From Candidatus Woesearchaeota archaeon (GTDB lineage: Archaea > Nanobdellota > Nanobdellia > Woesearchaeales > UBA10216): a stretch of 27,227 nucleotides of DNA. Below the pieces are notes generated by a model. The model ran no database searches. It saw only the letters and a program-made list of their open reading frames with translations, and was not told the DNA's origin. The translations under genes were made by a program, and so were the position numbers. Position 1 is the stretch's first letter; each line of letters opens with the position of its first letter. This document shows positions 6,040-26,972 of this stretch, one piece after another. The stretch lies in contig JACPBX010000019.1 of assembly GCA_016180085.1 (NCBI GenBank), forward strand, positions 1 through 27,227. Direction: 5' to 3'.

Positions 6040-6072
6040 ATGAAATGCGAAGTCTGCGCACAACCTTTTTAA
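6040..6072 (+). other. Truncated duplicate of the zinc-finger gene start (MKCEVCAQPF*)
   Basis: ATGAAATGCGAAGTCTGC matches ATGAAATGTGAAATTTGC (6149-6166) at 15/18 positions. Its stop codon (TAA 6070-6072) lies inside the repeat element. Confidence 0.7.
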
Positions 6073-6145
6073 GAAAAACCCAAATCTTGCAAAGGCAAGA
6101 TTGGGCCCAGTCGCCAAAGGCGACTTGGGGGTTGATCAAAAAACG
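6061..6145 (+). repeat. Palindromic repeat element, long form with two internal hairpins
   Basis: CAACC-TTTTT-AAG-AAAAA-[CCCAAATCTTGC AAAG GCAAGATTGGG][CCCAGTCGCC AAA GGCGACTTGGG]-GGTTG-ATCAAAAAACG. Same ends as the two tRNA introns. Confidence 0.8.
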
Positions 6146-6148
6146 CCA

Positions 6149-6307
6149 ATGAAATGTGAAATTTGCAGCAAGGGCATTGCGGAAACATTTTTGGGCAAGG
6201 TAAAAGGCACTTACGTCAAGGACGGCAAAGGCAAGCTTCGCGCTGTTTGCTTTGAGTGCCAGTCAAGGTTTAAAGATAAGTCCTCGCTGTTGCAGCAGCT
6301 GAAGTGA
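6149..6307 (+). CDS. Small zinc-binding protein, 52 aa (CxxC...CxxC)
   Basis: MKCEICSKGIAETFLGKVKGTYVKDGKGKLRAVCFECQSRFKDKSSLLQQLK. ATG 6149 is preferred over the track start at 6101, which lies inside the repeat. Confidence 0.85.
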   Translation: MKCEICSKGIAETFLGKVKGTYVKDGKGKLRAVCFECQSRFKDKSSLLQQLK

Positions 6308-6345
6308 ATAATTTAAAAACACGTGCCTGTTCTGTACTCTTTATT

Positions 6346-6465
6346 GCCCCTGTAGCTCAGTGGCCAGAGCGACTGCTTCGTATGACCCTTTTGCAAGCAA
6401 AAGGTTCAATCCAAAAACGATGAAGAAAAAGCAGTAGGCCGCGAGTTCAACTCTCGCCAGGGGCT
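6346..6465 (+). tRNA. tRNA-Thr(CGT) with a 37/38 intron
   Basis: Acceptor GCCCCTG/CAGGGGC, D-arm GCTC/GAGC, anticodon stem ACTGC/GCAGT, loop TT-CGT-A|A, T-arm GCGAG-TTCAACT-CTCGC, discriminator U73. CCA not encoded. ATTTAAAAA box at 6311-6319. Confidence 0.95.
6383..6429 (+). other. tRNA-Thr intron (47 nt) made largely of the repeat element
   Basis: TGACCCTTTTGCAAGCAAAAGGTTCAATCCAAAAACGATGAAGAAAA. Removal restores a 7-nt loop. The central helix TTCG:AGAA has 3 of 4 pairs. Confidence 0.85.
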
Positions 6466-6564
6466 TTCTCCCCCGAAATCCGATAGTTTTTTATAGTCAA
6501 AAGGGCAAAAAAGGCTTAAAATAGTTAAAAAAAGCCTCGCTTGAGGCTCCAAGAGGTGTTGCGT

Positions 6565-6807
6565 ATGTGCATGGGAGGAGGAAACTGCAGTGATGGCGTA
6601 TGTGCGAAGTGCCACGCTGTTATGAAAGTGGTGCTTGGTGCATTGGTGCTGCTCAACATTTACGTTTGGCCAAAATGGACAGGCGGAGTTGACCAGTGGC
6701 TGGCGTTTTTCGCAGTGCTGTTCATCATAAAGGGCGCAATCAAATTTGTCATGCCCAACTGCTCTCACTGCAAGCCTGAGGCAACGGCTGGCAAGAAAGG
6801 CAAGTAA
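6565..6807 (+). CDS. Small two-TM membrane protein with Cys-rich termini
   Basis: SD-like GAGGTG 6 nt before ATG 6565. MCMGGGNCSDGVCAKCH...two hydrophobic segments...CSHCK. Confidence 0.75.
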   Translation: MCMGGGNCSDGVCAKCHAVMKVVLGALVLLNIYVWPKWTGGVDQWLAFFAVLFIIKGAIKFVMPNCSHCKPEATAGKKGK

Positions 6808-6851
6808 GAGCAAGCAAGACAGTAGATTAGCAGAATAAGAAGCGAAAGAAG

Positions 6852-6872
6852 GGGCCCAAAAAGGCCCGTTTC
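6852..6872 (+). terminator. GC hairpin followed by a short T tract
   Basis: GGGCC-CAAAAA-GGCCC-GTTTC, 45 nt after the preceding stop codon. Confidence 0.4.
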
Positions 6873-6903
6873 TAAGCTGATTTACTACCCCTTAATGACA
6901 AGA

Positions 6904-6920
6904 AGCGAAAAGTATTTATA
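6904..6920 (+). promoter_or_regulatory. BRE-TATA promoter upstream of tfe
   Basis: AGCGAAAAG-TATTTATA fits the archaeal BRE + TATA pattern. Confidence 0.55.
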
Positions 6921-7054
6921 CTAGTTCGCACAGGAATACAGGTTAAGGGGGTTTAGTGGCTGTCTTAAACGATAGCCAGCGTAATCCGCTTTTGCTGCCA
7001 GTTTTTAAGGCAGCAACAAGGTTCAAAAAATAGGAAAAACAGGGAAAGAAAAAG

Positions 7055-7633
7055 ATGAGACAAATCTTGAAAGCTCCGAGGATGAGGATGCATGGAATGC
7101 AGAAGGCAAGGTCAAGGTCTCTTGCCACAGCAGTGAGGAAGAGCGGCCATCTTCAGACTGTTGCCGAGGTTGTTGGCCAGGAAGCTGTGCCGATTGTGCA
7201 GTACCTGAAGGGCAAGAAGAACATTTCCGAGTTCAAGATAGCTGAGAGCATAAAGGCAGAGGTTAATTCTGTGAGAAAGATGCTTTACGCGATGCAGACA
7301 AGCAACCTTGTCAGCTACTACAGGAAGAAGGACAGGCAGAAGGGCTGGTACATCAGCTACTGGACTTTGAAGCCTGAGTCTTTTGACTATCTCTCTCTTG
7401 CGACAAAGAGGCAGAGGCTTCAGCAGCTTAGGGAGCGCCTCCATAAGGAAGAGGCAAACGAAGGCCTGTTCTACATTTGCCCGAGCCTGTGCGTGAGGCT
7501 TGAGTTTGACAAGGCTGCCGAGATAAGCTTCAAGTGCCCTGAGTGCGGTACCATGCTGCAGCATCAGGACAACATCAAGACCATAGAGCAGTTAAGGTCA
7601 AGGATAAGCGAGCTTGAGTCCAAAAAGAACTAG
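7055..7633 (+). CDS. tfe: Transcription factor E (TFIIE-alpha homolog)
   Basis: Winged helix (ISEFKIAESIK...VRKMLY...LVSYYRKKDRQKGWYISYW) followed by a zinc ribbon (FYICPSLC...FKCPECG). Start uncertain (7055 or 7097). Confidence 0.93.
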   Translation: MRQILKAPRMRMHGMQKARSRSLATAVRKSGHLQTVAEVVGQEAVPIVQYLKGKKNISEFKIAESIKAEVNSVRKMLYAMQTSNLVSYYRKKDRQKGWYISYWTLKPESFDYLSLATKRQRLQQLRERLHKEEANEGLFYICPSLCVRLEFDKAAEISFKCPECGTMLQHQDNIKTIEQLRSRISELESKKN

Positions 7634-7656
7634 GTTGAGTGGCATTAGTGGCAACA

Positions 7657-9060
7657 TCATCTGCTTCCTTCTGCAGCCACAACCGCTGCTGTGTTACCAT
7701 TGAGTATGTGCAGCTTCTCAGCGTGCTTCAGCGTGTTCTGGAACCAGAGCAGGGCTGCTATGCCGGCTACCAAATGGCCAGTCATTATGCCGAGCCACAC
7801 CCCTTTTAATCCCAGCTGCAGTGGGAATGCCAGGGTGTATGCGAGTGCTATCATCAGCCCGAAAGCAAGTGATGTTATTGCCAGTACCTGCCACGCCTTG
7901 CCCAGACCCTGAAACGAGCTTGCGGCTATAAGCCTCAGGCCGAGGAAGCCGTATGCCAGTGCTACTATGCTGAAGTATTGCCTGCCGTAAGCGATGACAG
8001 CAGCGTCTTTCGTGAACACGGACAGCAGGATTGGGGAGGCAAGCAGGAGGGTTATGCCGACTGCTTCCATAAACATGAAAGCGCTGATTGAGGAGAAGAT
8101 TGAGGCGAGCCTTGCCCTGCCATACTGCCTTGCGCCAATGTTCTGGCCTATGACCGATAGCGTTGCAAGCCCGACTGCAAAGGCAGGCAGGACTGCCACT
8201 GATTCAAGCCTGAAGGCAACGCCCAGCCCTGCAAGCGCCAGGCTTCCGAATGAGGCAACGATTTTGTTAAGGAAGAAAATGCCAACCGCCAGAGTGCCTT
8301 GTGATGCTGCTGTCGGGATGCTGACTGCAAGTATGCCCCTGACAATTTCATTTGAGTAAACGAGCTTCTTGAACCTTAGCTTTACCAGCGCCTTTCCGCT
8401 GAAGAGGTGTGAGTACGAGTAAAGCAAACCGAGGGACTGTGATATTATGGTAGCGATTGCCGCGCCTTTAACGCCAAGCTGGGGGAACGGCCCGTAGCCA
8501 AAGATGAACAGGGGATCGAGTATTATGTTCGCTATGTTTGCAATTACGAGCGCTTTCATCGGTGTTTTCGCATCGCCCTCTCCCTGGAGCATTGCATTCG
8601 CTACGTTGGCAAGGAAGAACGCGCCACTTCCAAGGTAAATGACAGACAGGTAGTCCTTCATGAAGGCTGCAACCGTGGCTGACACGCCCAGGAAGCTGAC
8701 AAGGGGCTTTATCGTGAAAAAGCCTATGGCTAGGGTGATGACAGACAGGGCTGCTGCGATGAGCAAGCCGTTTTCGGCAATAACGTTAACCTTTTCAAAA
8801 TTCTTGGCGCCTATGCTTCTTGCCACAAAGGAGCTGACGCCTATGCCCATGCCTGAGTTAAGAGCTATGATTATGAAGAAGATTGGGAACGAGGCAGCGA
8901 CAGCAGCAATGGCTTCAGGCCCAAGCCTTCCAACGAAGAACGTGTCAACCAGCGTGAAGAGGTTGTGCATGAACATCGCAACGAGCATGGGGGCTGCGAG
9001 GAAGATGACGTGCTTCCTGATGCTTCCGGTTGTGAGGTCTTTTTTTGGCTTAGGCTCCAT
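7657..9060 (-). CDS. MATE family efflux transporter
   Basis: DLTTGSI...LAAPM...LFTLVDTFFVGRLG...ALAA; QGEGDAKTPM...NIILDPLFIFG...LGVKGAAIAT; two-fold internal repeat, ~12 TM. Start moved to ATG 9060. Confidence 0.93.
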   Translation of the reverse strand: MEPKPKKDLTTGSIRKHVIFLAAPMLVAMFMHNLFTLVDTFFVGRLGPEAIAAVAASFPIFFIIIALNSGMGIGVSSFVARSIGAKNFEKVNVIAENGLLIAAALSVITLAIGFFTIKPLVSFLGVSATVAAFMKDYLSVIYLGSGAFFLANVANAMLQGEGDAKTPMKALVIANIANIILDPLFIFGYGPFPQLGVKGAAIATIISQSLGLLYSYSHLFSGKALVKLRFKKLVYSNEIVRGILAVSIPTAASQGTLAVGIFFLNKIVASFGSLALAGLGVAFRLESVAVLPAFAVGLATLSVIGQNIGARQYGRARLASIFSSISAFMFMEAVGITLLLASPILLSVFTKDAAVIAYGRQYFSIVALAYGFLGLRLIAASSFQGLGKAWQVLAITSLAFGLMIALAYTLAFPLQLGLKGVWLGIMTGHLVAGIAALLWFQNTLKHAEKLHILNGNTAAVVAAEGSR

Positions 9061-9127
9061 TTGAATCAGCAAAGGCTGCGATAAAGAACTTGTTTATAAG
9101 GTTACTGGCGTAGCTTTGCAACAATAA

Positions 9128-10372
9128 TCACTCATACCTTAATGCCTGCACGGGGTTGAGCCTTGCTGCCTGCCGTGCAGGGGCAACCCCCGACACGCAG
9201 CCCAGCACGAATGAGAATGCCAGCGCACCCAGGATGAGGAAGGGGCTTGTTGACGCCTTCAGCAGCTCTGAGCCGAGAAAGTTTGTTGCTGCGAATTCAA
9301 CCATCTTGCCCATTCCGAGGCCGAACGCGATTCCTACAAGTCCTCCCACAAGGCCATAAAGCCCTGATTCAATCAGGAAAAGGAGCATCACGTCGCGGTT
9401 TTTTGCGCCAACCGCCTTCATTATGCCTATCTCCCTTGTCCGCTCGAGCACTGCAGTGTACATGGTATTCATTACGCCAATTGAGCCGACAACGAGCGAG
9501 ATTGCGGCTATCCCTATTATTACGGCCTGAACTATGCTTAATATGGTTGTAAAGCTTGCGAACAGGTCTTCAGAAGTCTGCACCTGGAAATCCTCGTTGC
9601 CCTCTTCCTGGCCCCTGTCCTTCCGTATCACTTCCTTTATTCTTGCAGCCACATCTACCGGCCTGAAGCCAGCCTCTACCTCAGCACTTACCAGGGCATA
9701 CTCGTCTTTGTTCCCGTATATTTCCCATGCGGTTTCAATCGGTATTATGACTGAAACGTCGTTAGCTGGGTCCCCAAGCTTTCTCCTTATGCCCACGACC
9801 TTGAACTCCTCACCCTCAACTTTTACCGTATCGCCTGGCTTGATTGTCCTGCCCATCAGCTTTTCGTCTGTCGAGTAGGAGTTCCCGACTATCGCCGCCT
9901 TTTTTTCCCCTTTCCTGAACTCCCTGCCCTGCGAAACCGAAAACCTCGTGCCGAAAACCCTTCTGCTCTCTTCATCAGCAGGAATCCCTATGCCCAAAGA
10001 GTATTTTGTCCTGCCGTTGAACTCGAACTTGCTCGTCTTGAACACAAAACCCCCGGCTTCTTTCACGCCCCTTGCCCTCTTTATCAGGTCAATGTCGTGC
10101 TGGGTGACCTTAGACAAGCCAGAGCTGCTGCCTGGAGGCCCGAAGAAGGCGCTGCCAGGCTGGACTATCACCCTGTCGGCTCCGATTGTGCTGAACTGCT
10201 CCTTTATCGCTGCCTCCATGCCCTTGCTTATTGATATCAGGCCTACTACTGCAGCGATGCCAACAAATATTCCGAGCATTGTCAGCCAGCTTCTCAGCTT
10301 CCTGTTCTTCATGCCCTTAACTGCCAGTAAGAAGTAATCCTTTAGCTTGATGAAAAGCTTCTGCATCTGCAT
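9128..10372 (-). CDS. ABC transporter permease, MacB/FtsX family
   Basis: RKLRSWLTMLGIFVGIAAV; periplasmic core; ISLVVGSIGVMNTMYTAVLERTREIGIMKAVGA; PARQAARLNPVQALRYE. Confidence 0.93.
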   Translation of the reverse strand: MQMQKLFIKLKDYFLLAVKGMKNRKLRSWLTMLGIFVGIAAVVGLISISKGMEAAIKEQFSTIGADRVIVQPGSAFFGPPGSSSGLSKVTQHDIDLIKRARGVKEAGGFVFKTSKFEFNGRTKYSLGIGIPADEESRRVFGTRFSVSQGREFRKGEKKAAIVGNSYSTDEKLMGRTIKPGDTVKVEGEEFKVVGIRRKLGDPANDVSVIIPIETAWEIYGNKDEYALVSAEVEAGFRPVDVAARIKEVIRKDRGQEEGNEDFQVQTSEDLFASFTTILSIVQAVIIGIAAISLVVGSIGVMNTMYTAVLERTREIGIMKAVGAKNRDVMLLFLIESGLYGLVGGLVGIAFGLGMGKMVEFAATNFLGSELLKASTSPFLILGALAFSFVLGCVSGVAPARQAARLNPVQALRYE

Positions 10373-10432
10373 TTCCCCTGTATATCCCCCGCATCTTCCC
10401 TGCACTACATACGCTTCGCGGCTTTGCCTGCT

Positions 10433-11692
10433 TTACTTCTTTTTTCTGAGCTTCCTGTAAGCAAGAACGCCAACCACAACTATTGCTACAGTAATGAGTA
10501 TGCCCTTGCCGTTGCTCTTTTCAAGCCCGAACTTTCCAAGCTCAGAGGTGGTGTAAACCCTTACCGGAACAGTAATCGTCTGCTGGTGCGGCTCGTTCAG
10601 CGCATCCCTGTATTCGAGGCTTAGCGTAAGCTGTGCTGGCTTTTTGAAGAAAACATCGTAACTTACTGTTTCTGAATCTCCCGAGTCTAGGTCTCCAACA
10701 TAAGCAGACTCAGGGGAGAGTATCTCGTAGTTTTCTGATTTGGCCAGAGCTGATGACAGGAATTTCACGTCCGAAAGGCCGCTGTTTATGATTTCTATCG
10801 TGACTTTGCGCTTTGCATTTAGCTTCAGCGGGTCTGAGCCAATGGCAGCAGCAGCCAGCTGCGGCTCTGAACTGACTAGTATGCCAAAGGACTGCCCGCT
10901 GATAGTGTAGTTCCTTCCTGACGTGTCAGAGTATGTTATGAGCAGGGGCATCCTGTACAGCGCGCTTTTTGCATCGGGGCTCGTGATTACGGAAAAGGCT
11001 GCCTTTGAAGTGCCTTTTTGCTTGATGAGCGGTATTATTGCCTCGTTTGTGGAGCCGTAGGCTGAAAACGTGTCTGTGAGGTTCAGCCTTACCCTGACGT
11101 TCACTGCATCACCGGTTCCGATGTTTGTGACTTCAAGTTCCAGACTGGAAGGCTTGCCGGGAACCATGGTTTCCGGCTTAGCAACAACAGACGTTACCGC
11201 AAGGGGCAAATCCCTCCTGCCTACGCTTACATTGAAACTGTCAACCACTGTCCAGCCCTGCGATGCCGTCTTATACCTTAGCGCGATTGGGTTTATGCCT
11301 GAGCCTGCTGCGACATCAATTGTCAGGAAGAACCTTACTATGACCGCATCCTTTCCTTTCTGCCTCCCGAAAAGGTTGCCGACAGATTTTGTTTTCTCGC
11401 TTTCATCAACCGAGAACGGGAACCTTGGCAGAAGCTCAACAGTAACGCCGTCAGCGGGCATTGTGCCAATGTTCTCGACCTTGAACTTCAGCTCAAGCCG
11501 CTCACCGGGCATGACAGGCTCAGGGTCCTGGTTGACAAAGCTTATTGTCACGAAAGCCGAATCAGAGACAGAGTCGTCAGTCCCAGCACTCACTGCTGTT
11601 GCATTTGTTAAAACTGCTGCAGCCGCGATAAAAACCAGGAAAACACTCAATGCGGCAAATACCGCTGCAGGAGGAATGTTCAGCTTAGTCAT
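10433..11692 (-). CDS. COG1361 / S-layer-family secreted protein with Ig-like repeats and a C-terminal TM anchor
   Basis: N-terminal hydrophobic signal, QDPEPVMPGE..ELKFKVENIG, repeated beta-rich units, C-terminal TM plus RKLRKKK. Sits between the ABC ATPase and the MacB permease, a familiar archaeal triad. Confidence 0.8.
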   Translation of the reverse strand: MTKLNIPPAAVFAALSVFLVFIAAAAVLTNATAVSAGTDDSVSDSAFVTISFVNQDPEPVMPGERLELKFKVENIGTMPADGVTVELLPRFPFSVDESEKTKSVGNLFGRQKGKDAVIVRFFLTIDVAAGSGINPIALRYKTASQGWTVVDSFNVSVGRRDLPLAVTSVVAKPETMVPGKPSSLELEVTNIGTGDAVNVRVRLNLTDTFSAYGSTNEAIIPLIKQKGTSKAAFSVITSPDAKSALYRMPLLITYSDTSGRNYTISGQSFGILVSSEPQLAAAAIGSDPLKLNAKRKVTIEIINSGLSDVKFLSSALAKSENYEILSPESAYVGDLDSGDSETVSYDVFFKKPAQLTLSLEYRDALNEPHQQTITVPVRVYTTSELGKFGLEKSNGKGILITVAIVVVGVLAYRKLRKKK

Positions 11693-11715
11693 TGCAGCCA
11701 CACCAGCTCTTTAGT

Positions 11716-12399
11716 TCAGTTCTTTTTTATCTTGATTATGGTCCCGTCCTTTATATAGGCTATGGTTTCAGCTTCGCCTGCAATCCTGTCATCGTGGGTT
11801 ATCACCACAACGGTTTTGCCTTTGTCGTGGAGCTTTTTCAGCATCCCAAAGATCTTCCTGCCTGTGCCGCTGTCGAGGTTTCCGGTTGGCTCGTCAGCCA
11901 GTATCACTTCGGGGTCGTTTGCCAGTGCCCTTGCTATTGCAACCCTCTGCTGCTGCCCTCCTGAGAGCTGGCTGGGGCGGTGGCCTTTCCTGTTAAGAAG
12001 CTCAACCTCGCCTAGCAGCTCGACAGCCTTCTTTTCCCTTTCATCCTCAGATTTTCCCTGGAAAATCATTGGCAGCATTATGTTTTCCATTGCCGTGAGC
12101 GTTGGCACCAGGTTGAACTGCTGGAAGATAAAGCCAACAGTTTTTCCCCGCATCTCGGCAAGCTCGTCTTCCGAGAGCGTGCTTACGTTCCTGCCCTGTA
12201 TGTAAACAGAGCCCCTGTCAGGCGCGTCCAGTGCCCCGATAATATGCATCGCCGTAGACTTCCCGCTTCCAGATGGGCCCTGTATTGCAAAGAACTCGCC
12301 TTTTTTTATTTCCAGGGAAGCACCGCGCAGGGCGTTTATGGTTTCGTCGCCCATCCTGTAGGTCTTCCACACGTTCTCAAGCTTCACAGCAGCAGCCAT
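11716..12399 (-). CDS. ABC transporter ATP-binding protein, LolD/MacB family
   Basis: Walker [11 protein letters not shown]-loop GFIFQQFNL, signature [15 protein letters not shown], Walker [13 protein letters not shown]-loop ITHD. ATG 12399 lies ~24 nt after TTTAAATA. Confidence 0.96.
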
Positions 12400-12476
12400 C
12401 AAACAAAATCCTGAAGTTTGCATTATTTAAAGTTTCAGCAAAACCTATAAATACGCCACGGGTTGCCATGCTTGAA

Positions 12477-13118
12477 ATGGCTTTACTGGCAATACGCACC
12501 ATAGTAAAGGAAAAGGACAAGGACAGCGGGAAGAAATGGTTTGCTGTATTTGTCGGGGTTATTATGCTGATGAGCGTGGCAGGCTTTGTTTTCTCCTTTA
12601 ACCCATCAGCACAGGGCAGCAATTTCCGTTATGGCGACCTGACGTTCAGGCAGACGCAGCAGGGATTCTTCGCCACAGAGGTAAATGGAAGGCAGGTTGA
12701 TTTCTTCTACAGGCCCGAGGACGTTTCGGATATCGACGTGCCTGGCTCTGCAGTTGAAAGGCTGACGGGAAGCAGGGTTGTTTACATCACTTATTACTGG
12801 AACAGCACGCTGGCTGAGGGCATGGCGCTTCTGCAGTTCGACGCTGCAAACCTGCTGGACTCAGTGCACAAAGTTTTCGCCCAGGCTGCATCAACAACAG
12901 CGAATCCTTTTAATCTTCCTCTTGTAACATGCGGTAATTCCACGAGCTTCATCCCTGTGCTGCTCTTTCAGGAAGCAAATAACACAGCAATATCCGTAGA
13001 TTCTGAAAACCCTGACTGCATTGTTTTGAGCGCCTCATCTGAGTCAGGGTTCGCAAGGGCAGCTGACAGGCTTAAGTACGCGCTTATATCAGGTGAGGCG
13101 GGCGGTGGCCGGGAATGA
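12477..13118 (+). CDS. Single-TM exported hypothetical protein (paralog 1)
   Basis: TATAAATA at 12446-12453 favours ATG 12477. TM WFAVFVGVIMLMSVAGFVF; many N-x-S/T sequons; C-terminal TC...C...RAADRL. Confidence 0.75.
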   Translation: MALLAIRTIVKEKDKDSGKKWFAVFVGVIMLMSVAGFVFSFNPSAQGSNFRYGDLTFRQTQQGFFATEVNGRQVDFFYRPEDVSDIDVPGSAVERLTGSRVVYITYYWNSTLAEGMALLQFDAANLLDSVHKVFAQAASTTANPFNLPLVTCGNSTSFIPVLLFQEANNTAISVDSENPDCIVLSASSESGFARAADRLKYALISGEAGGGRE

Positions 13119-13861
13119 GCAACAAAATCTCCGTAGAAGACCGCGCGGAAAAGGAAGGAGGCAAGGGAAAGCAGCAGGCATGGCAAAAGCCTGAGCCGCA
13201 GCAAATGCAACAACACCAGCAGCGCGAGCAAGCAAGCCACCATAGACACCATGAAAGGAACATAGTCCTGGCCTTCGCGGCTGTAGGGGTGGTTGTTATT
13301 CTTGGATTCTTCATGGCAAGATACGCGATAAACCTGGTCAGTGGCGATGGCACAGTTGATAATGCGGAAGAAAGCCGCTATTACAACGGGTTTGAGTTTG
13401 TAACAGATGGCAGCACGTGGTTCACTCAGTGGAAAGGGGACGAACTTACTTATAACCTACAGCTCAGGCACCCACCTTGGGAAGTTGAGAATGTGACTGT
13501 GAAAGGGCAAGTTGACTGGCGTTTTCAGATGCCTGGGATTTTCATAACTTTTGACCCGCCAGAGAACTTTAGTAGGCAGAACTCCTTTCTATTTCTCGCA
13601 AGTGTTGACCTGACAAGCAATTTGGACACAGTTCTCGACAGGACGGTTATTGCTGCCTGCACAGCCAACCTCACCGAAGCCTGCACCCAGAGGCCAATTG
13701 TCACGTGCTCAACAAACGCCTCAGTGATTTACCTCAAGGTCTCAAACGAAACAGGCGTCTTCCTTGACGGCAACTGCGCAACAATCCAGGGCTACGAAAA
13801 AGGCTTAACAAGAGCTGCCGACAAGGTAATTTACCAGTGGCTTAAAATAATCAGGAAATAG
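13115..13861 (+). CDS. Single-TM exported hypothetical protein (paralog 2)
   Basis: ATGA overlap with the upstream stop. TM IVLAFAAVGVVVILGFF; YNGFEF; TC...C...RAADKV, like the upstream gene. Confidence 0.8.
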   Translation: MSNKISVEDRAEKEGGKGKQQAWQKPEPQQMQQHQQREQASHHRHHERNIVLAFAAVGVVVILGFFMARYAINLVSGDGTVDNAEESRYYNGFEFVTDGSTWFTQWKGDELTYNLQLRHPPWEVENVTVKGQVDWRFQMPGIFITFDPPENFSRQNSFLFLASVDLTSNLDTVLDRTVIAACTANLTEACTQRPIVTCSTNASVIYLKVSNETGVFLDGNCATIQGYEKGLTRAADKVIYQWLKIIRK

Positions 13862-14369: not shown

Positions 14370-14388
14370 TTCCTTTCCCGCAACAGCA

Positions 14389-14754: not shown

Positions 14755-14800
14755 GGCAGAAACGGCCGGAGCGGTTCGAAGCTTAAAAAGGTTACTGCAG

Positions 14801-18867: not shown

Positions 18868-18883
18868 TTAAACGTGACTAAAA

Positions 18884-20587
18884 ATGGCAGCGAGGAGCAA
18901 GCTTAGGAGGATAGTGACGAATCCCAGGGTTGTAATTGTAATCCTGGCAGTTCTCATATCGGTTTACTCAACAGGCATCCCATTCTCGCTCGGGAGGGAG
19001 GGGGTTGTTGTCAGGTCTATTGAAAAAGACAGCGCTGCTTACGATGCAGGCATTCGGAGCAGTGAAAGCGGCACTGGCCTGGCTTCGAAGGAAAGAATAA
19101 TAGCCATTGACGGCAATAAGATAAAGACCCTGATAGACTATGCCGGTGCTGTTTCCGAGCTGGAGATAAACCAGACCCTGCTTGTCGAGACAGACAAGGC
19201 ATTTTACAGGGTTGTGGTGAAGCCAGAGATTAACATCAGGGTATTGCCTGAACTGGAAGAAAAAACCGTGGTTGTCAATGCAACTACGAATGAAACGGCT
19301 AAGGTTCTTGTCAACAAAACCGTGGAGGAGATTCTGGGTGTTGACGATGACATAGGGTTGAGGGTTGCCAATGCCCCAAAAACAAACCTGCGCCTTGGCC
19401 TTGACCTCCAAGGAGGGGCAAGGGTAATGCTCAAGCCAGAGACAGAGCTGCCAAGGGAGGACCTTGAGCTTGTCATAGCCAACATGAACAGGAGGCTGAA
19501 CCTGTTTGGGCTGAGCGATGTTGTTGTGAGGGACGCATCTGACCTCTCAGGCAGCATGTTCATAATCGTTGAGGTTGCCGGAGCCAACGAGGAAGACGTG
19601 AGGCAGCTGATAGCCAGGCAGGGGAAGTTTGAAGCCAAGATAGCCAATGAGACTGTTTTCACAGGCAATGAAGTGACTGATGTGTGCAGGAGCGCGACCT
19701 GCTCAGGCATTGATTTCCAGTCAGGAGGGTGTTTCCAGGGTTCATCTTCTGAAACAGTTTGCAGGTTTTATTTTACAATCTCACTAAGCCAGGAGGCAGC
19801 TGCAAAGCAGGCGGCTGCAACAGGAAAGCTTGCTATTGTAGGCGATTACCTCAGCCAGCCTCTGCAGCTGTTCCTGGATGACGAGCTTGTTGACGAGCTT
19901 CAGATAGGCAAGGAGCTCAAGGGCAATGCTGTTACCGGAATCAGCATATCAGGCAGCGGCTCGGGCTCAGGCAGGAAGGCTGCAACAGCCAATGCCATAA
20001 ACAACATGAAAAGGCTCCAGACAATTCTAATTACCGGCTCATTGCCAGTCAAGCTTGAGATTGTCCGAACCGATTCCATCTCGCCAATACTTGGCGAGCA
20101 GTTCCTGAGAAACGCACTTAAAGTCGGGCTGATTGCAATCCTTTTTGTTGTCGGAATACTGCTGTTCGCTTACAGGAAGCTTCAGATTGCCATTCCTGTA
20201 ATGTGCACAAGTCTCCTTGAAATCTTTATAATGCTGGGCTTTGCCTCGCTCCTGCCTTTCCTGAGCTGGACCATTGACCTTGCAGCCATTGCAGGCATAA
20301 TAGCAGCTGTCGGAACAGGCGTTAACGACCAAATAATCATCACTGACGAAGCCCTGAAAGGCGAGCAGAGGAGGATATTCTCATGGAAGGAAAAGCTAAA
20401 GTCAGCGTTCGCGGTAATATTCGGAGCCTACCTGACGCTGGTTGTTGCAATGCTGCCACTGTTCGCGGTTGGCGCAGGAATGCTCAGGGGCTTTGCCCTC
20501 ACCACAATCATCGGCATGTCTGTAGGCGTTTTCATAACCAGGCCTGCATACGCAAAGGTTATTGAGATACTGATGGAAAGGGATTAG
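18884..20587 (+). CDS. secD: Protein translocase subunit SecD
   Basis: LRLGLDLQGG, GKFEAKI, GSLPVKL, ISPILG, IDLAAIAGIIAAVGTGVNDQIIITDE, GFALTTIIG...ITRPAY. Confidence 0.95.
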   Translation: MAARSKLRRIVTNPRVVIVILAVLISVYSTGIPFSLGREGVVVRSIEKDSAAYDAGIRSSESGTGLASKERIIAIDGNKIKTLIDYAGAVSELEINQTLLVETDKAFYRVVVKPEINIRVLPELEEKTVVVNATTNETAKVLVNKTVEEILGVDDDIGLRVANAPKTNLRLGLDLQGGARVMLKPETELPREDLELVIANMNRRLNLFGLSDVVVRDASDLSGSMFIIVEVAGANEEDVRQLIARQGKFEAKIANETVFTGNEVTDVCRSATCSGIDFQSGGCFQGSSSETVCRFYFTISLSQEAAAKQAAATGKLAIVGDYLSQPLQLFLDDELVDELQIGKELKGNAVTGISISGSGSGSGRKAATANAINNMKRLQTILITGSLPVKLEIVRTDSISPILGEQFLRNALKVGLIAILFVVGILLFAYRKLQIAIPVMCTSLLEIFIMLGFASLLPFLSWTIDLAAIAGIIAAVGTGVNDQIIITDEALKGEQRRIFSWKEKLKSAFAVIFGAYLTLVVAMLPLFAVGAGMLRGFALTTIIGMSVGVFITRPAYAKVIEILMERD

Positions 20588-21446
20588 GCGGTTTCCGGCA
20601 AATCAGCGAGGATGGCTGCCACCCGGTATTTGTTCCGTATAAATGTTGTAAGATAAGATAATTTGCGCCGTGCCGCATGCCGCTTAGAAGACTTTTGACT
20701 TCTTGGACTTTATGAGCACAATCCCCTATGACCATGAGGCCTTCAGGTTTGAGCATTTCATGCAGGTCATAGACTATTGATGTCCACATCTCATCTGCAT
20801 TGCACAGCACATTATTGCAAATCACCATTTCAAAGCTTGACGCTATCCGCTTCTGTAGCAGCGGTGCCGCATCATGGATAACAGTTATCCGGCTTTTTAC
20901 ATCTTGGCCAAGAGGAAGACGCCAGGCTGTGGTTGGTGTCAAAAGGCGCCGAGCTTCAGTTGGCGTCAAATACGAAAAGGCCCTACTGATTCCGAGACGT
21001 CTGCCTACGGCCCTAATTTCCTCTCCCGAGAACTGCCGCGTTTGAGGATTGGTTTCAATTAAGCGTGCCAGATACCGATTGTGCCACTCGGTTTGGGATA
21101 CTGAATCATTATCATCAGAGTGCAATATGAGATTCTGTTGTGATGCAACTGCATCACAGACCTGTTCGTTACTATCGATAACAGTCAAGCGCCACTCAAG
21201 CCCTGCCCTTTGCATTAGCAGGGCAACTTCGAAAGGCTCGAAAGTTTGGAGAACATCACCGAATCCCTCATAATTTCCGTCAAAGTATTTGGTTGCAAAA
21301 GGGAGGTTAAGTCCTGCGCCCACAACAAGGGCGCCATATTCACTGCCTCTTTGAGCACTCAGAATTTCCTCAAGGGCCAGAAATGCCCTCGCATGTCTAG
21401 CAAAGTGGGTTTTTGTACCATGAGTGTCTAAATTATCAGAGTTCAT
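20559..21446 (-). CDS. Putative class I SAM-dependent methyltransferase, CheR-like
   Basis: LVVGAG...EPFEVALL...LTVIDSNEQV...FEMVICNNVL...LHEMLKPEGLMVIG parallels the CheR motifs EPYSLAM, ATDID, FDLIFCRNVL, LKPGGYLFLG. Confidence 0.6.
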   Translation of the reverse strand: MNSDNLDTHGTKTHFARHARAFLALEEILSAQRGSEYGALVVGAGLNLPFATKYFDGNYEGFGDVLQTFEPFEVALLMQRAGLEWRLTVIDSNEQVCDAVASQQNLILHSDDNDSVSQTEWHNRYLARLIETNPQTRQFSGEEIRAVGRRLGISRAFSYLTPTEARRLLTPTTAWRLPLGQDVKSRITVIHDAAPLLQKRIASSFEMVICNNVLCNADEMWTSIVYDLHEMLKPEGLMVIGDCAHKVQEVKSLLSGMRHGANYLILQHLYGTNTGWQPSSLICRKPPNPFPSVSQ

Positions 21447-21525
21447 CTGACAAGGGAAATCAGGCTCCCAATTTATTGTTTTCTGTCAATAGCTTTAAAA
21501 ACCTGCATCGGCAGCAACCTCGGGC

Positions 21526-22092
21526 ATGATAATCACCATCTCAGGCGTTCCAGGCTCCGGCAAGAGCACCGTAGCTAGATTGGTTGCGAGGAAGCTCGGC
21601 TTCAGGCACCACTCCGCAGGAGATTTCATGAGGGAGATTGCTGAAAAAAGAGGGGTTTCCCTGCTTGAGCTGGGAAGAATCGCAGAGAAGGACCGCAGCA
21701 TAGACAAGGAACTTGACGAAAGGACAATAAGGCTTGGCAAGGAAGAAGACGACTTTGTCATGGACTCAAGGCTTGCCTACTATTTCATTCCGCAGTCGTT
21801 CAAGGTTTTCCTTATGGTTGACGAAATGGCAGCCGCGAAGAGGATTTTCAGCGATATCAAGGGCAAAAAAATGGGCAGAAAAGTGGAGAAGGAAAGCACA
21901 ACCCTCGCTGCAACACTAGCCAGCATCCGCAAGAGGAAAAAGTCAGAGCGGCAGCGCTACAGGAAGTACTACGGCCTCAACCCTTACGACACGAAGCAGT
22001 ACGACCTGGTCATTGACACTACCAGAACAGCGATTGAAGATGTTGTGGAAAAGGTTGTTGAAGCGGTGAAGAAAAGCTGCATGTCGTGCTAA
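21526..22092 (+). CDS. cmk: Archaeal cytidylate kinase
   Basis: IITISGVPGSGKSTVA, SAGDFMREIA, IDKELD, VMDSRLA, ERQRYRKYYG, YDLVIDT. Confidence 0.93.
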   Translation: MIITISGVPGSGKSTVARLVARKLGFRHHSAGDFMREIAEKRGVSLLELGRIAEKDRSIDKELDERTIRLGKEEDDFVMDSRLAYYFIPQSFKVFLMVDEMAAAKRIFSDIKGKKMGRKVEKESTTLAATLASIRKRKKSERQRYRKYYGLNPYDTKQYDLVIDTTRTAIEDVVEKVVEAVKKSCMSC

Positions 22093-22149
22093 CGCCTTTG
22101 TGAAAAAAAACAAGAACTTTTTTAAACCCTCCAAATTTTCGGATTCTTT

Positions 22150-22872
22150 ATGGAGACAATAAAGGAAAACGACTTTGTTGAGCTTGATTATACTGGCAAG
22201 GTTGCCGAGACAGGAGAGGTTTTTGACACAACTTCTGCGGAAGTTGCCAAGGAAAAGGGCATCTTTGACGAGCGCGCAGCATACGGGCCAGCGGTTGTGT
22301 GCATTGGGAAGAGGCACCTTCTTATCGGCCTGGACAAGCAGCTTGTCGGAAAGGAGGTTGGAAAGAGCTACACGTTTAAGCTTCCGGTTGAGGAGGCTTT
22401 CGGAAGGAAAAACGCCAAGCTTATGCAGCTTGTTCCAACAGCGAAGTTCAGACAGCAGCAGCTTACCCCTTTCCCGGGTATGCAGGTTAACATTGACGGC
22501 ATAGTCGGCACGGTAAGGACCGTTACTGGGGGGAGAACGATTGTTGACTTCAACCACCCACTGTCGGGAAGGGAGCTTGAATACGCTGCCAGTGTTAAAA
22601 GGATTGTTACAGATGTTTCTGAAAAAGTCAGGGCAATACTCAGGCTCATAGGAATAAGCGTTAATGCTGTTGGCGTTTCTGTAAGTGATGGCAGCGCAGC
22701 GATAGAATTTCCGCAGGAGGCTCCTGCGCAGCTGAAAAAGGACATAGAGGAAAAGCTGAAGTCTGCCATAACTGAGCTGAAGGCCGTTTCTTTTACAGTA
22801 AAAGCGCCTGCTGCTCCTGCGACTGCAGCAATGGCAGCAGAACCGGCAGAAAAGCAAAAGCCGCTGCAGTAA
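22150..22872 (+). CDS. FKBP-type peptidyl-prolyl isomerase, long archaeal form
   Basis: DFVELDYTGK...GEVFDTT, GLDKQL, EAFGRKN, GGRTIVDFNHPLSG, plus the C-terminal domain of long archaeal FKBPs. Confidence 0.92.
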   Translation: METIKENDFVELDYTGKVAETGEVFDTTSAEVAKEKGIFDERAAYGPAVVCIGKRHLLIGLDKQLVGKEVGKSYTFKLPVEEAFGRKNAKLMQLVPTAKFRQQQLTPFPGMQVNIDGIVGTVRTVTGGRTIVDFNHPLSGRELEYAASVKRIVTDVSEKVRAILRLIGISVNAVGVSVSDGSAAIEFPQEAPAQLKKDIEEKLKSAITELKAVSFTVKAPAAPATAAMAAEPAEKQKPLQ

Positions 22873-23035
22873 GCGAAGAAAACCGTAACGGCAAAACGCG
22901 GCCAATTTTCGTCACTAAATAAAACAAAATTATTTTTTCACAAATTTTTTCTGAACGACAAAATATAAATAGTAGTAAGGGGGTTGAAAGGCTGGGTTTT
23001 TACGCTTTTACGCGTTTGCGAGGAGGGGCTAGTTT

Positions 23036-24130
23036 ATGGGGAGCGTTATACTTTCGACAAAAGATACAATAAGGTCATTAAGCAAGACCAACACTGCCGA
23101 TGCCGAGCTTGAGCAGCTCCTTTCAAAGCATCGCGCAACAATAAAGGTTGTTGGCTGCGGAGGAGCAGGCAACAACACAGTAACGAGGATTTCTGAAGTG
23201 GGCGTTGTGGGTGCTGAAACGATAGCCATAAACACAGACGCCCAGGACCTGCTTTACACAACTGCTGACAGGAAGATCCTGATTGGCAAGGAGCTCACCC
23301 ACGGCTTCGGGGCAGGCTCTGACCCGAAGATTGGCGAGGAAGCTGCAAAGGAAACCGAGCACGAGATTAAGGAAACACTGACAGGCGCTGACATGGTGTT
23401 TGTCACGTGCGGCCTTGGCGGGGGAACGGGCACCGGCTCGGCTCCTGTGGTTGCGGACATCGCAAAAAAGCTGGGCTGCCTTGTTGTTGGGGTTGTAACG
23501 CTTCCGTTTTCCATGGAAGGGAACAGGAGGTATGACAATGCCATGGCAGGGCTTGAGAGGCTTGAGGAAATCACCGACACTTTGATTGTCATCCCGAACG
23601 ACAAGCTTCTTGAGCTTGCTCCGGACCTTCCGCTGCTAACAGCCTTCAAGGTTGCTGATGAGATACTCACAAATGCCGTCAAGGGCATAGCTGAGCTTGT
23701 CACAAAGCCCGGCCTGATCAACCTCGACTTTGCAGACATCAGGGCTGTTATGGGAGGCGGTGGGGTTGCCCTCATTGGGGTTGGCGAATCTGATTCGGAG
23801 AACAGGGCTGTTGAGGCTGTTGAGAAAGCCATTAACAACCCGCTGCTTGACGTTGACACTTCAGGCGCATCAGGGGCATTAATCAACATCTCAGGCGGCC
23901 CTGACATGACGCTTGAAGAGGCAAGGAAGGTTGTTGAGACCGTCAGCCAAAAGCTGGATGCCGATGCCAGAGTCATCTGGGGAGCCCAAATCTATGAGGA
24001 CCTTGCAAGGACTGTAAGGGCAATGCTGATAGTCACCGGTGTAAAGTCTGCCCAGATTCTGGGCGCCAAGAAGCTCGCTGTCCAGAAAAAAGAGATGGAA
24101 AACGAGCTCGGAATAGAGTTTGTGGACTGA
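23036..24130 (+). CDS. ftsZ: Cell division protein FtsZ (FtsZ1-type by synteny)
   Basis: [50 protein letters not shown]. Followed by secE-spt5-rpl11. Confidence 0.98.
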
Positions 24131-24258
24131 GCAAAAACCGCAACCTTTAAAAAAGAGCCCTTACTCTTGTTCACATAGCGATTTTTAGATATGTTTTTTA
24201 AGTCAGGCGTTAAAAACGGCGTTAGTTAGAGTGTTAAAGAGGCATCACGAGGTAACAA

Positions 24259-24444
24259 ATGGTTATTGCAATTTTTACAAAATTAAAGAGTTTTGCAGGC
24301 GAGTGCAGAAGGGTTTTGACTGTGACGAAGAAGCCAACGAAAGCAGAGCTTATTACTGTTGTCAAGGTCTCTGGCATAGGCATTGCCCTGATAGGCTTAA
24401 TCGGCTTTGCCCTTAACATGATTAACAAAGTGATTTTCCAGTAA
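24259..24444 (+). CDS. secE: Protein translocase SecE / Sec61-gamma
   Basis: ECRRVLTVTKKPT..E...VVKVSGIGIALIGLIGF; position in the ftsZ-secE-spt5 cluster. Confidence 0.93.
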   Translation: MVIAIFTKLKSFAGECRRVLTVTKKPTKAELITVVKVSGIGIALIGLIGFALNMINKVIFQ

Positions 24445-24473
24445 TTTTTCAAGAAATGATTGGTTGATGCTGA

Positions 24474-25139
24474 ATGGCTGATGCTGCTGATGAAAATGCT
24501 GAAAAGCAGGATGATGAGCTGGACCTGAACATAGAGGAACAATCACCTGATGAGCTTCTTGAGGCATCGCTGAAAAAAGACCAGGAAGCGGCTGAAAAAG
24601 AGGCAACTGCCGAGAAAAAAGAAGAGGTTAAAGGGCAGAAAGAAGCTGAGACCGCAAGGTCTCCCATCTTTGCCCTCCGCACAACCGCAAATCGGGAAGA
24701 GCAGGTAATGGACTTCATAACCTCCAATGCAAAGAAGAAAAAGCTTGGCGTTTACTCCCTTATTCACCCTCATGGAATGAGGGGCTACATTTTTATGGAG
24801 GCAAAGGACAGGCAAGATGCTGAGCAGGCAGCCTTCAGGGTCCCTTATGCCAGGGGCCTCCTTGACAAGGAAGTCTCATATGAGGAGATTGAGCACATGC
24901 TCGAGCCGGGTAAAAAAGTTGAGGTCAACATCCAGAAGGGCGACATTGTTGAGATAATCAGCGGCGCTGCCTTCAAGCATTCACAGGCAAAGGTCACCAG
25001 AATTGACAAGACAAAGGAGGAAGTAGTTGTTGAGCTTCTCGAGTCAGCCGTCCCAATCCCGATTACCCTGAAGCTGGATGCTGTAAAGGTAATAAGGAGG
25101 GAATCAGAGGAAGGCGAGGCAGCCCATCAGGAGGAGTGA
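24474..25139 (+). CDS. spt5: Transcription elongation factor Spt5 (NusG) with an acidic N-terminal extension
   Basis: NGN domain (IFALRTTANREEQV...MRGYIFME) and KOW (GDIVEIISG...AKVTRIDKTKEEVVVEL...PIPITL). Confidence 0.95.
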   Translation: MADAADENAEKQDDELDLNIEEQSPDELLEASLKKDQEAAEKEATAEKKEEVKGQKEAETARSPIFALRTTANREEQVMDFITSNAKKKKLGVYSLIHPHGMRGYIFMEAKDRQDAEQAAFRVPYARGLLDKEVSYEEIEHMLEPGKKVEVNIQKGDIVEIISGAAFKHSQAKVTRIDKTKEEVVVELLESAVPIPITLKLDAVKVIRRESEEGEAAHQEE

Positions 25140-25189
25140 GCCCACACCCATAGAAAGCTATTTAAAGAGCCTGCCTGTCCCAAATTCTC

Positions 25190-25987
25190 ATGCCAACCCA
25201 GACAGTAGAAGCGCTTGTTGAAGGCGGAAAAGCATCTGCAGCCCCGCCGCTTGGACCAGCACTTGGCCCGTTGGGTGTTAATGTAGGCCAAGTTGTTTCT
25301 GAGATAAACAAAAAGACAACTCTGTTTGCGGGAATGCAGGTCCCGGTAAAGGTTTCTGTTGACACTTCCACTAAGGCTTTCACCGTAGCCATAGGCACTC
25401 CCCCTTCCAGTGCGCTTGTCAAAAAGGAAGCGGGCATAGAGAAGGGCTCAAGCAACCCTCTGATGGACAAAGTGGCTGATTTAAGGATAGAGCAGATAAT
25501 CAAAATCGCCAAAATGAAGGAGTCACAGCTTCTTGGCAAGGGGCTGAAGTCAAAAGTCAAGGAAGTCATCGGAACGTGCAACTCCATGGGAATACTGGTT
25601 GAGGGAAGGCCTGCTTTTGAAGTCATTAAAATGATTGACCAGGGCAACTTCACTGAGGAAATAACCCAAGAGAAGACAGAGCTTACAGCAGCCGAGCTCA
25701 AGGAGCTTGAAGAGGAGAGGAAGAAGCTCGCTGAGGAAATCGAAAAGAGAAGGGGCGAATTCCTTGCCAAGGCCAAGCTCATTATTGACTCTATGGCAGG
25801 AAAGGCTCGTGGCGAAATAAAGGCAAAGCTTGTTGAGGCAGCCATACCAACCAAGATTATTGAGGAACTCCTCCCTGTAACAGCAGCAGCCGGAGCAGCT
25901 GGTGCCCCTGCTGAGGCAGGAAAGGCCGCTGCGCAGCCTGGCGCGGCACAACCGGCAGCTGCAGCAAAGAAGGAAGAAAAGAAATAA
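25190..25987 (+). CDS. rpl11: 50S ribosomal protein L11 (uL11) with a long C-terminal extension
   Basis: VEGGKASAAPPLGPALGPLGVN, GMQVPVKV, GTPPSSALVKKE, EVIGTCNSMGI. 265 aa, against roughly 160 for typical archaeal L11. Confidence 0.95.
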   Translation: MPTQTVEALVEGGKASAAPPLGPALGPLGVNVGQVVSEINKKTTLFAGMQVPVKVSVDTSTKAFTVAIGTPPSSALVKKEAGIEKGSSNPLMDKVADLRIEQIIKIAKMKESQLLGKGLKSKVKEVIGTCNSMGILVEGRPAFEVIKMIDQGNFTEEITQEKTELTAAELKELEEERKKLAEEIEKRRGEFLAKAKLIIDSMAGKARGEIKAKLVEAAIPTKIIEELLPVTAAAGAAGAPAEAGKAAAQPGAAQPAAAAKKEEKK

Positions 25988-25998
25988 GCGTGAACTGA

Positions 25999-26199
25999 AT
26001 GGGAAGGATAAAAACTCAGCTGACAAAAAGGGTGACAGAGCAGCTGCTCAGCAAATACCCAGGCCAGTTTAGCGAGGATTTCTCTGAAAACAAGCTTCTC
26101 GTTGCCAAGCACGTTTCAGTTTTTTCTGCAAAGCTCCGGAATACGGTGGCAGGCTACCTCACAAGGCTCGTAAAAGTAAGAAAGGCAAAGGGAATATAA
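25999..26199 (+). CDS. rps17e: 30S ribosomal protein S17e (eS17)
   Basis: MGRIKT...F..DF.ENK...S.KLRNTVAGY.T. Confidence 0.94.
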   Translation: MGRIKTQLTKRVTEQLLSKYPGQFSEDFSENKLLVAKHVSVFSAKLRNTVAGYLTRLVKVRKAKGI

Positions 26200-26480
26200 G
26201 GCCCATAATACCCTGCCAAAACTTATTAACATATTTCTCAGTCGTTTCCTGCAAAACACAATTCTTCCGCATTTTTACATAAAATTTCACAAAAAGCGCT
26301 GCTTATATTTTATAAATTTTATAATCACAAGTATCAAAAGCAGAATGAGTTATGCTTCTTTTTCTGAAAAATCAGCAAAAGATTATAGGAAGTATTATCC
26401 AAAAGCATATAAATAACCTCTGACTGACTTTTGTCATCGTTTTTTCAACGTTTGACAAAAAAAAGGTGGATTGATTTTTC

Positions 26481-26666
26481 ATGAAAGACCAAAGGTTCCT
26501 GCCGGCTGACAAGCGCGAACCCGTCGAGGATTATGACGATTATGCTGAGGAAAGTTCTGACGCTGATGAATTGTTTATCGGCAGTGAAGCCGAGGCGGAA
26601 GAGCTTCAAATGCTTGACCACAACGGCAAAAAAACGCAGAAGGACGTCCTTTACATTGCAAGCTGA
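26481..26666 (+). CDS. Small acidic hypothetical protein
   Basis: 61 aa, D/E-rich. TATAAATA at 26408-26415 and SD-like AAGGTGG upstream. Confidence 0.5.
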   Translation: MKDQRFLPADKREPVEDYDDYAEESSDADELFIGSEAEAEELQMLDHNGKKTQKDVLYIAS

Positions 26667-26764
26667 TTCTTTTTATTGTGCGCGGGATTGACATTCGCAG
26701 TTGCTGCGGCATTATCAGTTGAGAAAGTATTTTAAAGCAGTTAAAAGTTGCTTGTTCTTAGTTT

Positions 26765-26874
26765 GGGCTCGTGGTCTAACGGCATGACGCATCCTTCGCA
26801 TGACCCTTTTAAGAAAAGGGTCAATCCAAAAACGGAAAGGGATGAAACTGCGGGTTCGATTCCCGCCGAGTCCA
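26765..26874 (+). tRNA. tRNA-Ala(CGC) with a 37/38 intron
   Basis: Acceptor GGGCTCG/CGAGTCC with the G3:U70 alanine identity pair and A73; anticodon stem CATCC/GGATG; loop TT-CGC-A|G; T-arm GCGGG-TTCGATT-CCCGC. CCA not encoded. Confidence 0.95.
26801..26838 (+). other. tRNA-Ala intron (38 nt) made of the repeat element
   Basis: TGACCCTTTT-AAG-AAAAGGGTCA (perfect 10-bp hairpin)-ATCCAAAAA-CGGAAA. Central helix TTCG:CGGA with 3-nt bulges CA|T and AA|G. Confidence 0.88.
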
Positions 26875-26883
26875 TTCAAAATA

Positions 26884-26972
26884 GTTTTTTGGTCGAGCTT
26901 TCTTCGGCGGAGAGCCGAAGACTGTTGCCTCACCGGCAACATTTTTGCTCACCACAGTGAGGAAAAAGGTCG
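26884..26972 (-). repeat. Palindromic repeat element, long form, inverted orientation
   Basis: Minus strand reads CGACC-TTTTT-C-CTCAC TGTG GTGAG-C-AAAAA-[TGTTGCC GGTGA GGCAACA]G[TCTTCGGC TCTCC GCCGAAGA]AA-GCTCG-ACCAAAAAAC. Same architecture as 6061-6145. Confidence 0.7.

Follow-up and report, generated by a model that had tools for sequence, protein, structure and literature searches.

How does a small DNA palindrome come to lie both between genes and inside the introns of tRNA genes, and what might this tell us about where new archaeal tRNA introns come from? The question is posed by a contig of a Candidatus Woesearchaeota archaeon (JACPBX010000019.1), all 27,227 nucleotides (27.2 kb) of which make up the window analyzed here, and which belongs to a 1.0-Mb metagenome-assembled genome (MAG), 83% complete and labelled G000. 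The window carries four copies of an element consisting of a hairpin followed by an A-rich tail, two of them in tRNA introns and two free. The family to which they belong is mobile or at least repeatedly inserted, its unit occurs inside and outside tRNA genes, and at least one intron has been gained; new copies are made at the level of DNA and tend to follow (C)GCA. We consider it probable that this is a young, lineage-confined family of small modular DNA repeats that is copied by its host and persists in tRNA genes in the form of host-spliced introns.

The unit of the element is about 33 nt long and combines a 10-bp hairpin with a 10-nt tail. Its first arm consists of two variable bases, ACC and a T-run, its second arm of an A-run, GGT and two bases, and its tail of AYC, an A-run and then C; additional hairpin modules can nest within the unit, and both free copies in the window keep the ends of the intron copies. 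Copies were scored with a covariance model, R1, derived from an alignment (A2) of 21 short copies, and the counts that it yields are lower bounds, with 150 candidates scored per genome. An earlier, sequence-only reading of the window had proposed four copies with shared ends, all of which are indeed present:

6058 to 6144, + strand: copy 1, free long form including its GCA flank (R1; DNA fold z = -6.6), with a closing stem of 5 bp at 6061-6065/6130-6134, a T5/A5 hairpin at 6066-6078 and an A-rich tail at 6135-6144
6079 to 6129, + strand: nested 51-nt two-hairpin module in copy 1, missing from the otherwise identical copy in the congener G004
6346 to 6465, + strand: tRNA-Thr(CGT) gene (Rfam RF00005, 57.7 bits)
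6383 to 6429, + strand: 47-nt intron of tRNA-Thr at position 37/38, excision of which leaves a 73-nt tRNA-Thr
6383 to 6418, + strand: copy 2, in the tRNA-Thr intron (hairpin 6383-6408, tail 6409-6418; R1 51.5 bits)
6419 to 6429, + strand: exon-complementary extension of the tRNA-Thr intron, outside the repeat
26765 to 26874, + strand: tRNA-Ala(CGC) gene (Rfam RF00005, 50.4 bits)
26801 to 26838, + strand: 38-nt intron of tRNA-Ala at position 37/38, excision of which leaves a normal tRNA
26801 to 26833, + strand: copy 3, in the tRNA-Ala intron (hairpin 26801-26823, tail 26824-26833; R1 59 bits, the top match of the genome)
26834 to 26838, + strand: extension of the tRNA-Ala intron, supplying the rest of the 3′ splice site (4-bp helix, 3-nt bulge)
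26884 to 26972, - strand: copy 4, free, with three hairpins (tail 26893-26884; fold z = -5.5)

The terminal stem had been thought to be conserved as structure, and the copies bear this out through compensatory changes: 97% of cells in the stem are paired, four of the ten pairs have changed on both sides, and none of 500 shuffles matches the observed score, while folding z-scores range from -3.0 to -6.6. The two-hairpin module nested in copy 1 constitutes a separate repeat family with about 17 loci in G000, where it is found solo or nested (C20:48901, C22:138161, C29:42623 and C39:5872, among others) and exhibits compensatory changes in its inner stems.

Within the tRNA genes, each of the two window introns begins, from its first base, with the 10-bp hairpin of the element, and the 5–11 nt that follow the tail in tRNA introns are complementary to the anticodon loop, their sequence varying by species while the pairing is kept. 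The expectation that introns occupy the Thr and Ala sites is thus upheld, and the idea that the element is the whole intron is not, as both introns run further 3′. Removal of the Thr, Ala and T-loop Val inserts restores a tRNA in each case, of 73–74 nt for Thr and Ala and with the identity tRNA-Val(GAC) for the T-loop intron, and intronless orthologs agree with the predicted splice product. By inspection, the 3′ splice half of tRNA-Ala is canonical, comprising the 4-bp helix, the 3-nt bulge and the anticodon stem; the central helix of tRNA-Thr has 3 bp only. The host splicing endonuclease that had been invoked does have a gene in G000: EndA is a single 197-aa protein carrying PF02778 and PF01974. 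From these sequence features, EndA would be expected to remove the tRNA inserts, and the copies outside tRNAs appear to stay in place. The element had also been called self-excusing; it is not self-excising, since each intron adds its own exon-complementary 3′ extension to form the splice motif. A bulge–helix–bulge (BHB) intron in the mRNA of the zinc-ribbon gene downstream of copy 1 was considered and rejected, as the flanks are without a helix–bulge pattern and the attempted in-frame joining needs arbitrary borders. Both tRNA genes escaped default-mode ARAGORN, which reported no tRNA in the window, and the intron mode of the program misassigned the anticodons. At one ortholog of tRNA-Ala (L051, G006:C2), the intron and 3′ half are identical to those of G005 and the 5′ half is unrecognizable; the tRNA gene may here be split or decayed, or the assembly may be at fault.

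Beyond the window, full-length R1 matches with E < 0.01 number about 48 in the 1-Mb G000 genome, far more than chance would give, versus three weak ones in 30 genomes outside the genus, and the contexts of the copies confirm the dispersed family proposed by the sequence-only reading, common to tRNA introns and other sites. Some 25 of the roughly 55 G000 copies touch tRNA genes, which by our estimate account for under 1% of the DNA. Of the copies in this genome, at least 14 form tRNA introns, mostly at position 37/38, with two in T-loops and one near position 29; introns of congeners may contain two units, the second reversed. Seven further copies lie in reverse orientation 1–4 nt from tRNA 5′ ends, three or four follow directly behind tRNA 3′ ends, nine end 1–15 nt before a start codon, one sits in the hairpin loop of another repeat family, of which a paralogous loop is empty, and one is read in frame within the gene for Nop10. 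The supposed free long copy near each intron-bearing tRNA holds for this window and fails as a general rule, as G007 has the Thr intron together with an empty zinc-ribbon site. The overlap between the start of contig C35 and the end of C37 in G000 falls within a single tRNA gene, where an intron in a non-canonical position bears the element. The repeat probably breaks assembly, making copy numbers from MAGs underestimates.

Could the family instead be a static motif, maintained by selection as a promoter, terminator, 5′-untranslated-region element or tRNA-processing signal? Several of these placements would suit such a role, namely the nine copies preceding start codons on the same strand, the single fixed orientation of the seven at tRNA 5′ ends and the three or four at 3′ ends, and the T5 run would serve as an archaeal terminator. 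Moreover, in G007, G006 and G008 (loci L037, L035 and L038) a reversed copy abuts the 5′ end of tRNA-Thr in place of the TATA promoter that precedes this gene in G000. We nevertheless regard a static motif as improbable, considering that the family is confined to one genus, within which it varies from 1 to 125 copies, that it also occupies introns, an open reading frame (ORF) and the hairpin loop of another repeat, that nested 51-nt insertions abolish any fixed spacing, that empty orthologous sites have ordinary TATA promoters, and that flanking duplications record insertion events. At L037, L035 and L038, tRNA-Thr is only 33 nt from the upstream stop codon, and its transcription either starts from a promoter in the element or runs on from the upstream gene. 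As a general explanation, a promoter for leaderless mRNAs was discarded: the nested insertions break its spacing, the loops are variable and not TATA-like, and the ordinary TATA boxes at orthologous empty sites contradict it as well. Upon inspection, there were also no box motifs or arrays that would fit a C/D-box or H/ACA guide RNA, a solo repeat akin to clustered regularly interspaced short palindromic repeats (CRISPR) or an integron attC site.

One test of mobility, by which the sequence-only reading proposed that it might itself be refuted, is whether orthologous sites are filled in some genomes and empty in others. All genomes compared are MAGs with completeness of 67–92%, the congeners being denoted by G numbers. 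Such polymorphism is seen at the zinc-ribbon gene start, tRNA-Ala, tRNA-Thr and Nop10. The window features that surround the two free copies are the following:

6010 to 6019, + strand: TATA box of the zinc-ribbon gene, by sequence, 30 nt 5′ of the first (remnant) ATG
6040 to 6060, + strand: upstream duplicate of the gene start, in direct repeat with 6149-6169 (16/21 identical)
6149 to 6307, + strand: zinc-ribbon ORF of 52 aa, the start of which (6149-6169) forms the downstream duplicate
26974 to 27227, + strand: start of a MazG-family gene (Pfam PF03819, E = 3e-14)

First, the start of the zinc-ribbon gene is empty in G007, G008, G003 and G001, where an equivalent TATA box is followed after about 30 nt by the sole ATG; G004 has a 33-nt short form, and G000 and G005 have the same insertion with the nested module. 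Wherever the site is filled, some 21 bp of the gene start flank the insertion on both sides, whereas the empty-site congeners have a single copy. In the window, the upstream duplicate now opens a 10-codon mini-ORF (6040-6072) that reads into the element.

Second, tRNA-Ala(CGC) is intronless in G003 and in the matching outgroup genera g3, g5 and g9, from which it follows that the intron was gained within the genus. Other variants of the element occupy this intron position in congeners, and because the variant in G005 is that of the distant G006 and not that of its close relative G000, the intron body is evidently being replaced. tRNA-Thr is likewise intronless in G003, whose ortholog aligns as two abutting halves. 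Copy 4 fills the spacer between the 3′ end of tRNA-Ala and the MazG start codon at 26974, and this spacer differs in every genome, holding other variants, a copy in + orientation, or nothing.

Third, the Nop10 gene (G000:C23:19891-20079, - strand; loci L061/L064) contains in G000 and G005 a hairpin that is read in frame and adds five amino acids, in contrast to seven congeners without the insert, which have the usual C-x2-C motif there (C-x-C in G001). The native site already had GCAGC at its left and a tail-like run at its right. Approximately 9 nt gave way to a hairpin of 24 nt, whose loop makes up for the lost Cys codon with one of its own.

What kind of event leaves such sites behind? The flanks were compared for 170 distinct forward copies from G000 and the fetched loci. 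A flanking direct repeat above the score threshold accompanies 19 of them (~11%), versus six shuffled controls, and most of the 19 are duplications of 15–80 bp that abut the hairpin. Duplications of this size bracket recent copies. The right-hand copy of the duplication often starts in or just after the A-run of the tail, and several duplications, including those in Methanobacterium and Micrarchaeota, restore the start of an ORF or the 5′ half of a tRNA. GCA occupies the 5′ flank of 55 of the 170 copies, with a preference for (C)GCA, and is target-derived in one recent case. The duplications do not always begin at the transcription start, as one reaches 31 nt upstream of the ATG (L150). Additional configurations were encountered at individual loci. 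One (L058, G001:C75:4700-5200) comprises three tandem 53-nt units, each with a tail-like run, 7 nt, the hairpin and the tail, which successive duplications at the element have built into an array. In Methanobacterium sp. MBAC-AD2 and MBAC-LM (L139/L147 and L148), a copy lies in the 5′ part of a tRNA gene and a duplication of 26–35 bp regenerates the tRNA 5′ end downstream; further copies in these genomes are flanked by duplications of 40 and 74 bp. A regular-expression search for 5′-truncated copies returned mostly noise and was confounded by adjoining full copies.

These scars bear on the route that the sequence-only reading had put forward, in which a repetitive extragenic palindrome (REP) or a palindrome-associated transposable element (PATE) is moved in trans by a Y1 HUH transposase, be it a REP-associated tyrosine transposase (RAYT) or IS200/IS605 TnpA. 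Its fixed short ends of the REP type or of miniature inverted-repeat transposable elements (MITEs) give way here to long, variable flanking duplications or to none, and the short target-site duplication of fixed length by which MITEs are defined is replaced by one of 15–80 bp in ~11% of copies. Like REPs and bacterial interspersed mosaic elements (BIMEs) with their RAYTs, or the PATEs of IS200/IS605, the family consists of dispersed hairpins with a short conserved flank, often in inverted pairs. A hairpin with conserved neighboring sequence, the GCA preference at the 5′ flank and the absence of a short fixed target duplication would all agree with HUH mobilization, but the Y1 transposase is missing or fails to co-occur, and long, variable tandem duplications are not a HUH signature. 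Y1 (PF01797) is absent from G000 and from seven of the nine congeners, and within the genus is found only in G002, which has six copies of the element, and weakly in G005, so that its occurrence does not track copy number. We therefore deem this route highly improbable. More broadly, neither a Y1 transposase, TnpB, Cas1 nor a reverse transcriptase was found in G000 (83% complete; DDE and PrimPol-type families were not searched), and copy number across the genus follows neither HUH transposases nor reverse transcriptases.

A further clue resides in the tail, whose purine run reads as the purine arm of the stem backwards and is not its complement. Among the 170 copies, every stem variant has its matching tail, in six variant classes, given here with the pyrimidine run of the stem, the purine run of the tail and the number of copies:

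TTCTT stem, AAGAA tail: 8 of 8
CCTTT stem, GGAAA tail: 5 of 5
TTTCT stem, AAAGA tail: 2 of 2
TCTTT stem, AGAAA tail: 1
TTTTC stem, AAAAG tail: 1
CTTTT stem, GAAAA tail (6 copies) or CAAAA tail (19 copies)

None of 2000 permutations reaches the mirror score; as copies within a class are related, it is the classes that count as independent evidence. Copying cannot give rise to a mirror repeat, which, as read from the sequence, is the signature of an intrastrand purine-motif triplex, into which the element would be predicted to fold. Since purine-motif triplexes form in DNA and not in RNA (PMC4666352), the mirror constraint would act on DNA. The closest architectural parallel is provided by the enterobacterial BoxC, PIT and TMECO repeats (Holder et al. 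2015, PMC4666352), which resemble the element in layout, a pyrimidine arm being followed by a loop, the purine arm, a short loop and the mirrored purine run, and likewise in their length of about 34 nt, their variable flanks, their inverted pairs arranged tail to tail and their copy numbers, from one to dozens among close relatives, with no transposase nearby. They differ in being G/C-rich, with 9-nt arms and triplexes demonstrated in vitro, whereas the element is archaeal and A/T-rich, has 5–7 mirrored positions, nested modules and tRNA introns among its sites, and would form a triplex by prediction.

The mirrored tail also helps in weighing retroposition resembling that of short interspersed nuclear elements (SINEs), wherein an excised RNA of hairpin and A-tail would anneal through its A-run to a nicked T-rich target and be reverse-transcribed, leaving a target duplication of variable length. 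It would explain why the unit begins within 0–2 bases of the intron 5′ splice site and ends a few nucleotides behind the tail, why that tail is A-rich, and why duplications vary in length and have a left edge that is often A-rich or overlaps the A-run. Against it stand the mirror rule, which fits a triplex formed in DNA and not RNA (PMC4666352), the reversed copies also present within introns, and the distribution of the necessary enzyme: reverse transcriptase (PF00078), lacking in G000, is found within the genus only in G006, G003 and G002, which with 28, 1 and 6 copies are three of the four lowest-copy genomes, leaving G006 as the only one of seven congeners with at least 28 copies to have it. 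Retroposition thus seems unlikely to us, if somewhat less so than the static motif or the HUH route.

Returning to insertion at the DNA level, we favor a scheme in which host replication or repair, with no dedicated transposase, would do the copying. The hairpin or triplex would stall the polymerase and provoke template switching guided by microhomology, whereby a new copy could be written between a left-hand GCA and a right-hand A-rich tract, duplicating the target in between. Template switching would account for the variable duplications, the Nop10 replacement and the absence of a transposase. New copies might then survive where they do little harm: in tRNA genes, where the exon-complementary extension would create a BHB-like motif that could allow EndA to remove the insert; at gene 5′ ends, where the duplication would regenerate the start; and against tRNA ends, in spacers or in frame within ORFs. 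In this last regard there is a bacterial precedent. Rickettsia palindromic elements (RPEs) are small palindromes of 100–150 bp that lie in frame in protein genes and in RNA genes, are tolerated without a transposase of their own, and are not spliced out. The present element would resemble them in its tolerated in-frame and RNA-gene insertions and differ in its mirrored tail; we know of no such tail described for RPEs.

Several observations weigh against this account. About 90% of the copies are without a flanking duplication, and the tRNA introns show none. The 5′ splice site departs from a strict BHB, in which a 4-bp helix separates two 3-nt bulges: its bulge is followed by the hairpin of the element, but on the opposite strand the hairpin helix and the central helix are set apart by the looped-out 10-nt tail. 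The single-unit form of EndA is usually strict about its substrate. In one stem class, 19 of 25 copies have C in the tail where the mirror rule predicts G, and the ATCC subclass is the exception to that rule. The copies that end 1–15 nt before a same-strand start codon are nine of about 30 situated neither within tRNA genes nor against them and could signal a role in expression. Finally, a mobilizing enzyme could have been missed in incomplete MAGs.

How far has the family traveled? It is present in all nine congeners, with 1, 6, 28, 31, 55, 56, 57, 72 and at least 125 R1 matches, a 100-fold range in copy number. R1 finds no match in 14 sister genera of the family and three weak matches in two of 16 other families of the order. 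An exact 26-base pattern also occurs in two Methanobacterium genomes with seven R1 matches each, one of them complete (Methanobacterium sp. MBAC-LM is a complete chromosome record, not a MAG), and in Micrarchaeota, Aenigmatarchaeota, a Nanoarchaeota MAG and one IMG/VR provirus contig. If base composition is taken as uniform, a rough estimate puts the chance matches to this pattern in the 596-Gb collection at fewer than 0.001, and together with this expectation the patchy spread points to horizontal transfer. The provirus-classed contig (L073, IMGVR_UViG_3300048041_000145; 33.8 kb, 32% GC) has two copies and is a possible vehicle between hosts; six ORFs neighboring them match no Pfam family. 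It is tempting, though decidedly more speculative than the account of the family itself, to think that structure-guided templated insertion makes new archaeal tRNA introns and that the element moves between archaeal phyla (DPANN and methanogens), perhaps via viruses.

The window also holds a member of a second repeat family, at 213-256 on the + strand, with about 20 loci genome-wide. These have a TATA box, a conserved GCCGGGCA-type block, the 9-mer TGTCCAGTG and an overlapping 7-mer copy, with extra hairpins at some loci and the hairpin–tail element inserted in one; the family could represent a small-RNA gene or a regulatory site.

What, then, does the element mean for the birth of archaeal tRNA introns? 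The transposed BHB introns of Thermoproteales tRNA genes were likewise gained recently, by a transposition inferred to occur at the DNA level for which no donor or mechanism was given (Fujishima et al. 2010, as summarized in PMC4090602), and a 2026 census of Asgard archaea left the arrival route of tRNA introns open (10.64898/2026.10.13.758758). Relative to the Thermoproteales introns, the element is distinguished by its abundance outside tRNA genes, which amounts to a donor pool, and by its flanking duplications, stem-mirroring tail and cross-phylum distribution. In the literature searched, we found no published link between a dispersed repeat and archaeal tRNA introns. With a 33-nt unit inside and outside tRNA genes, the donor pool becomes visible, offering a concrete candidate source of new archaeal tRNA introns, and intron gains dated by intronless orthologs and outgroups, along with insertion scars, render intron birth testable. 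Next to the triplex repeats of bacteria, the family would further represent an archaeal counterpart rich in A/T. It may also illustrate three ways in which essential genes come to tolerate a selfish repeat, which is spliced out, accompanied by a duplicated gene start or read in frame.

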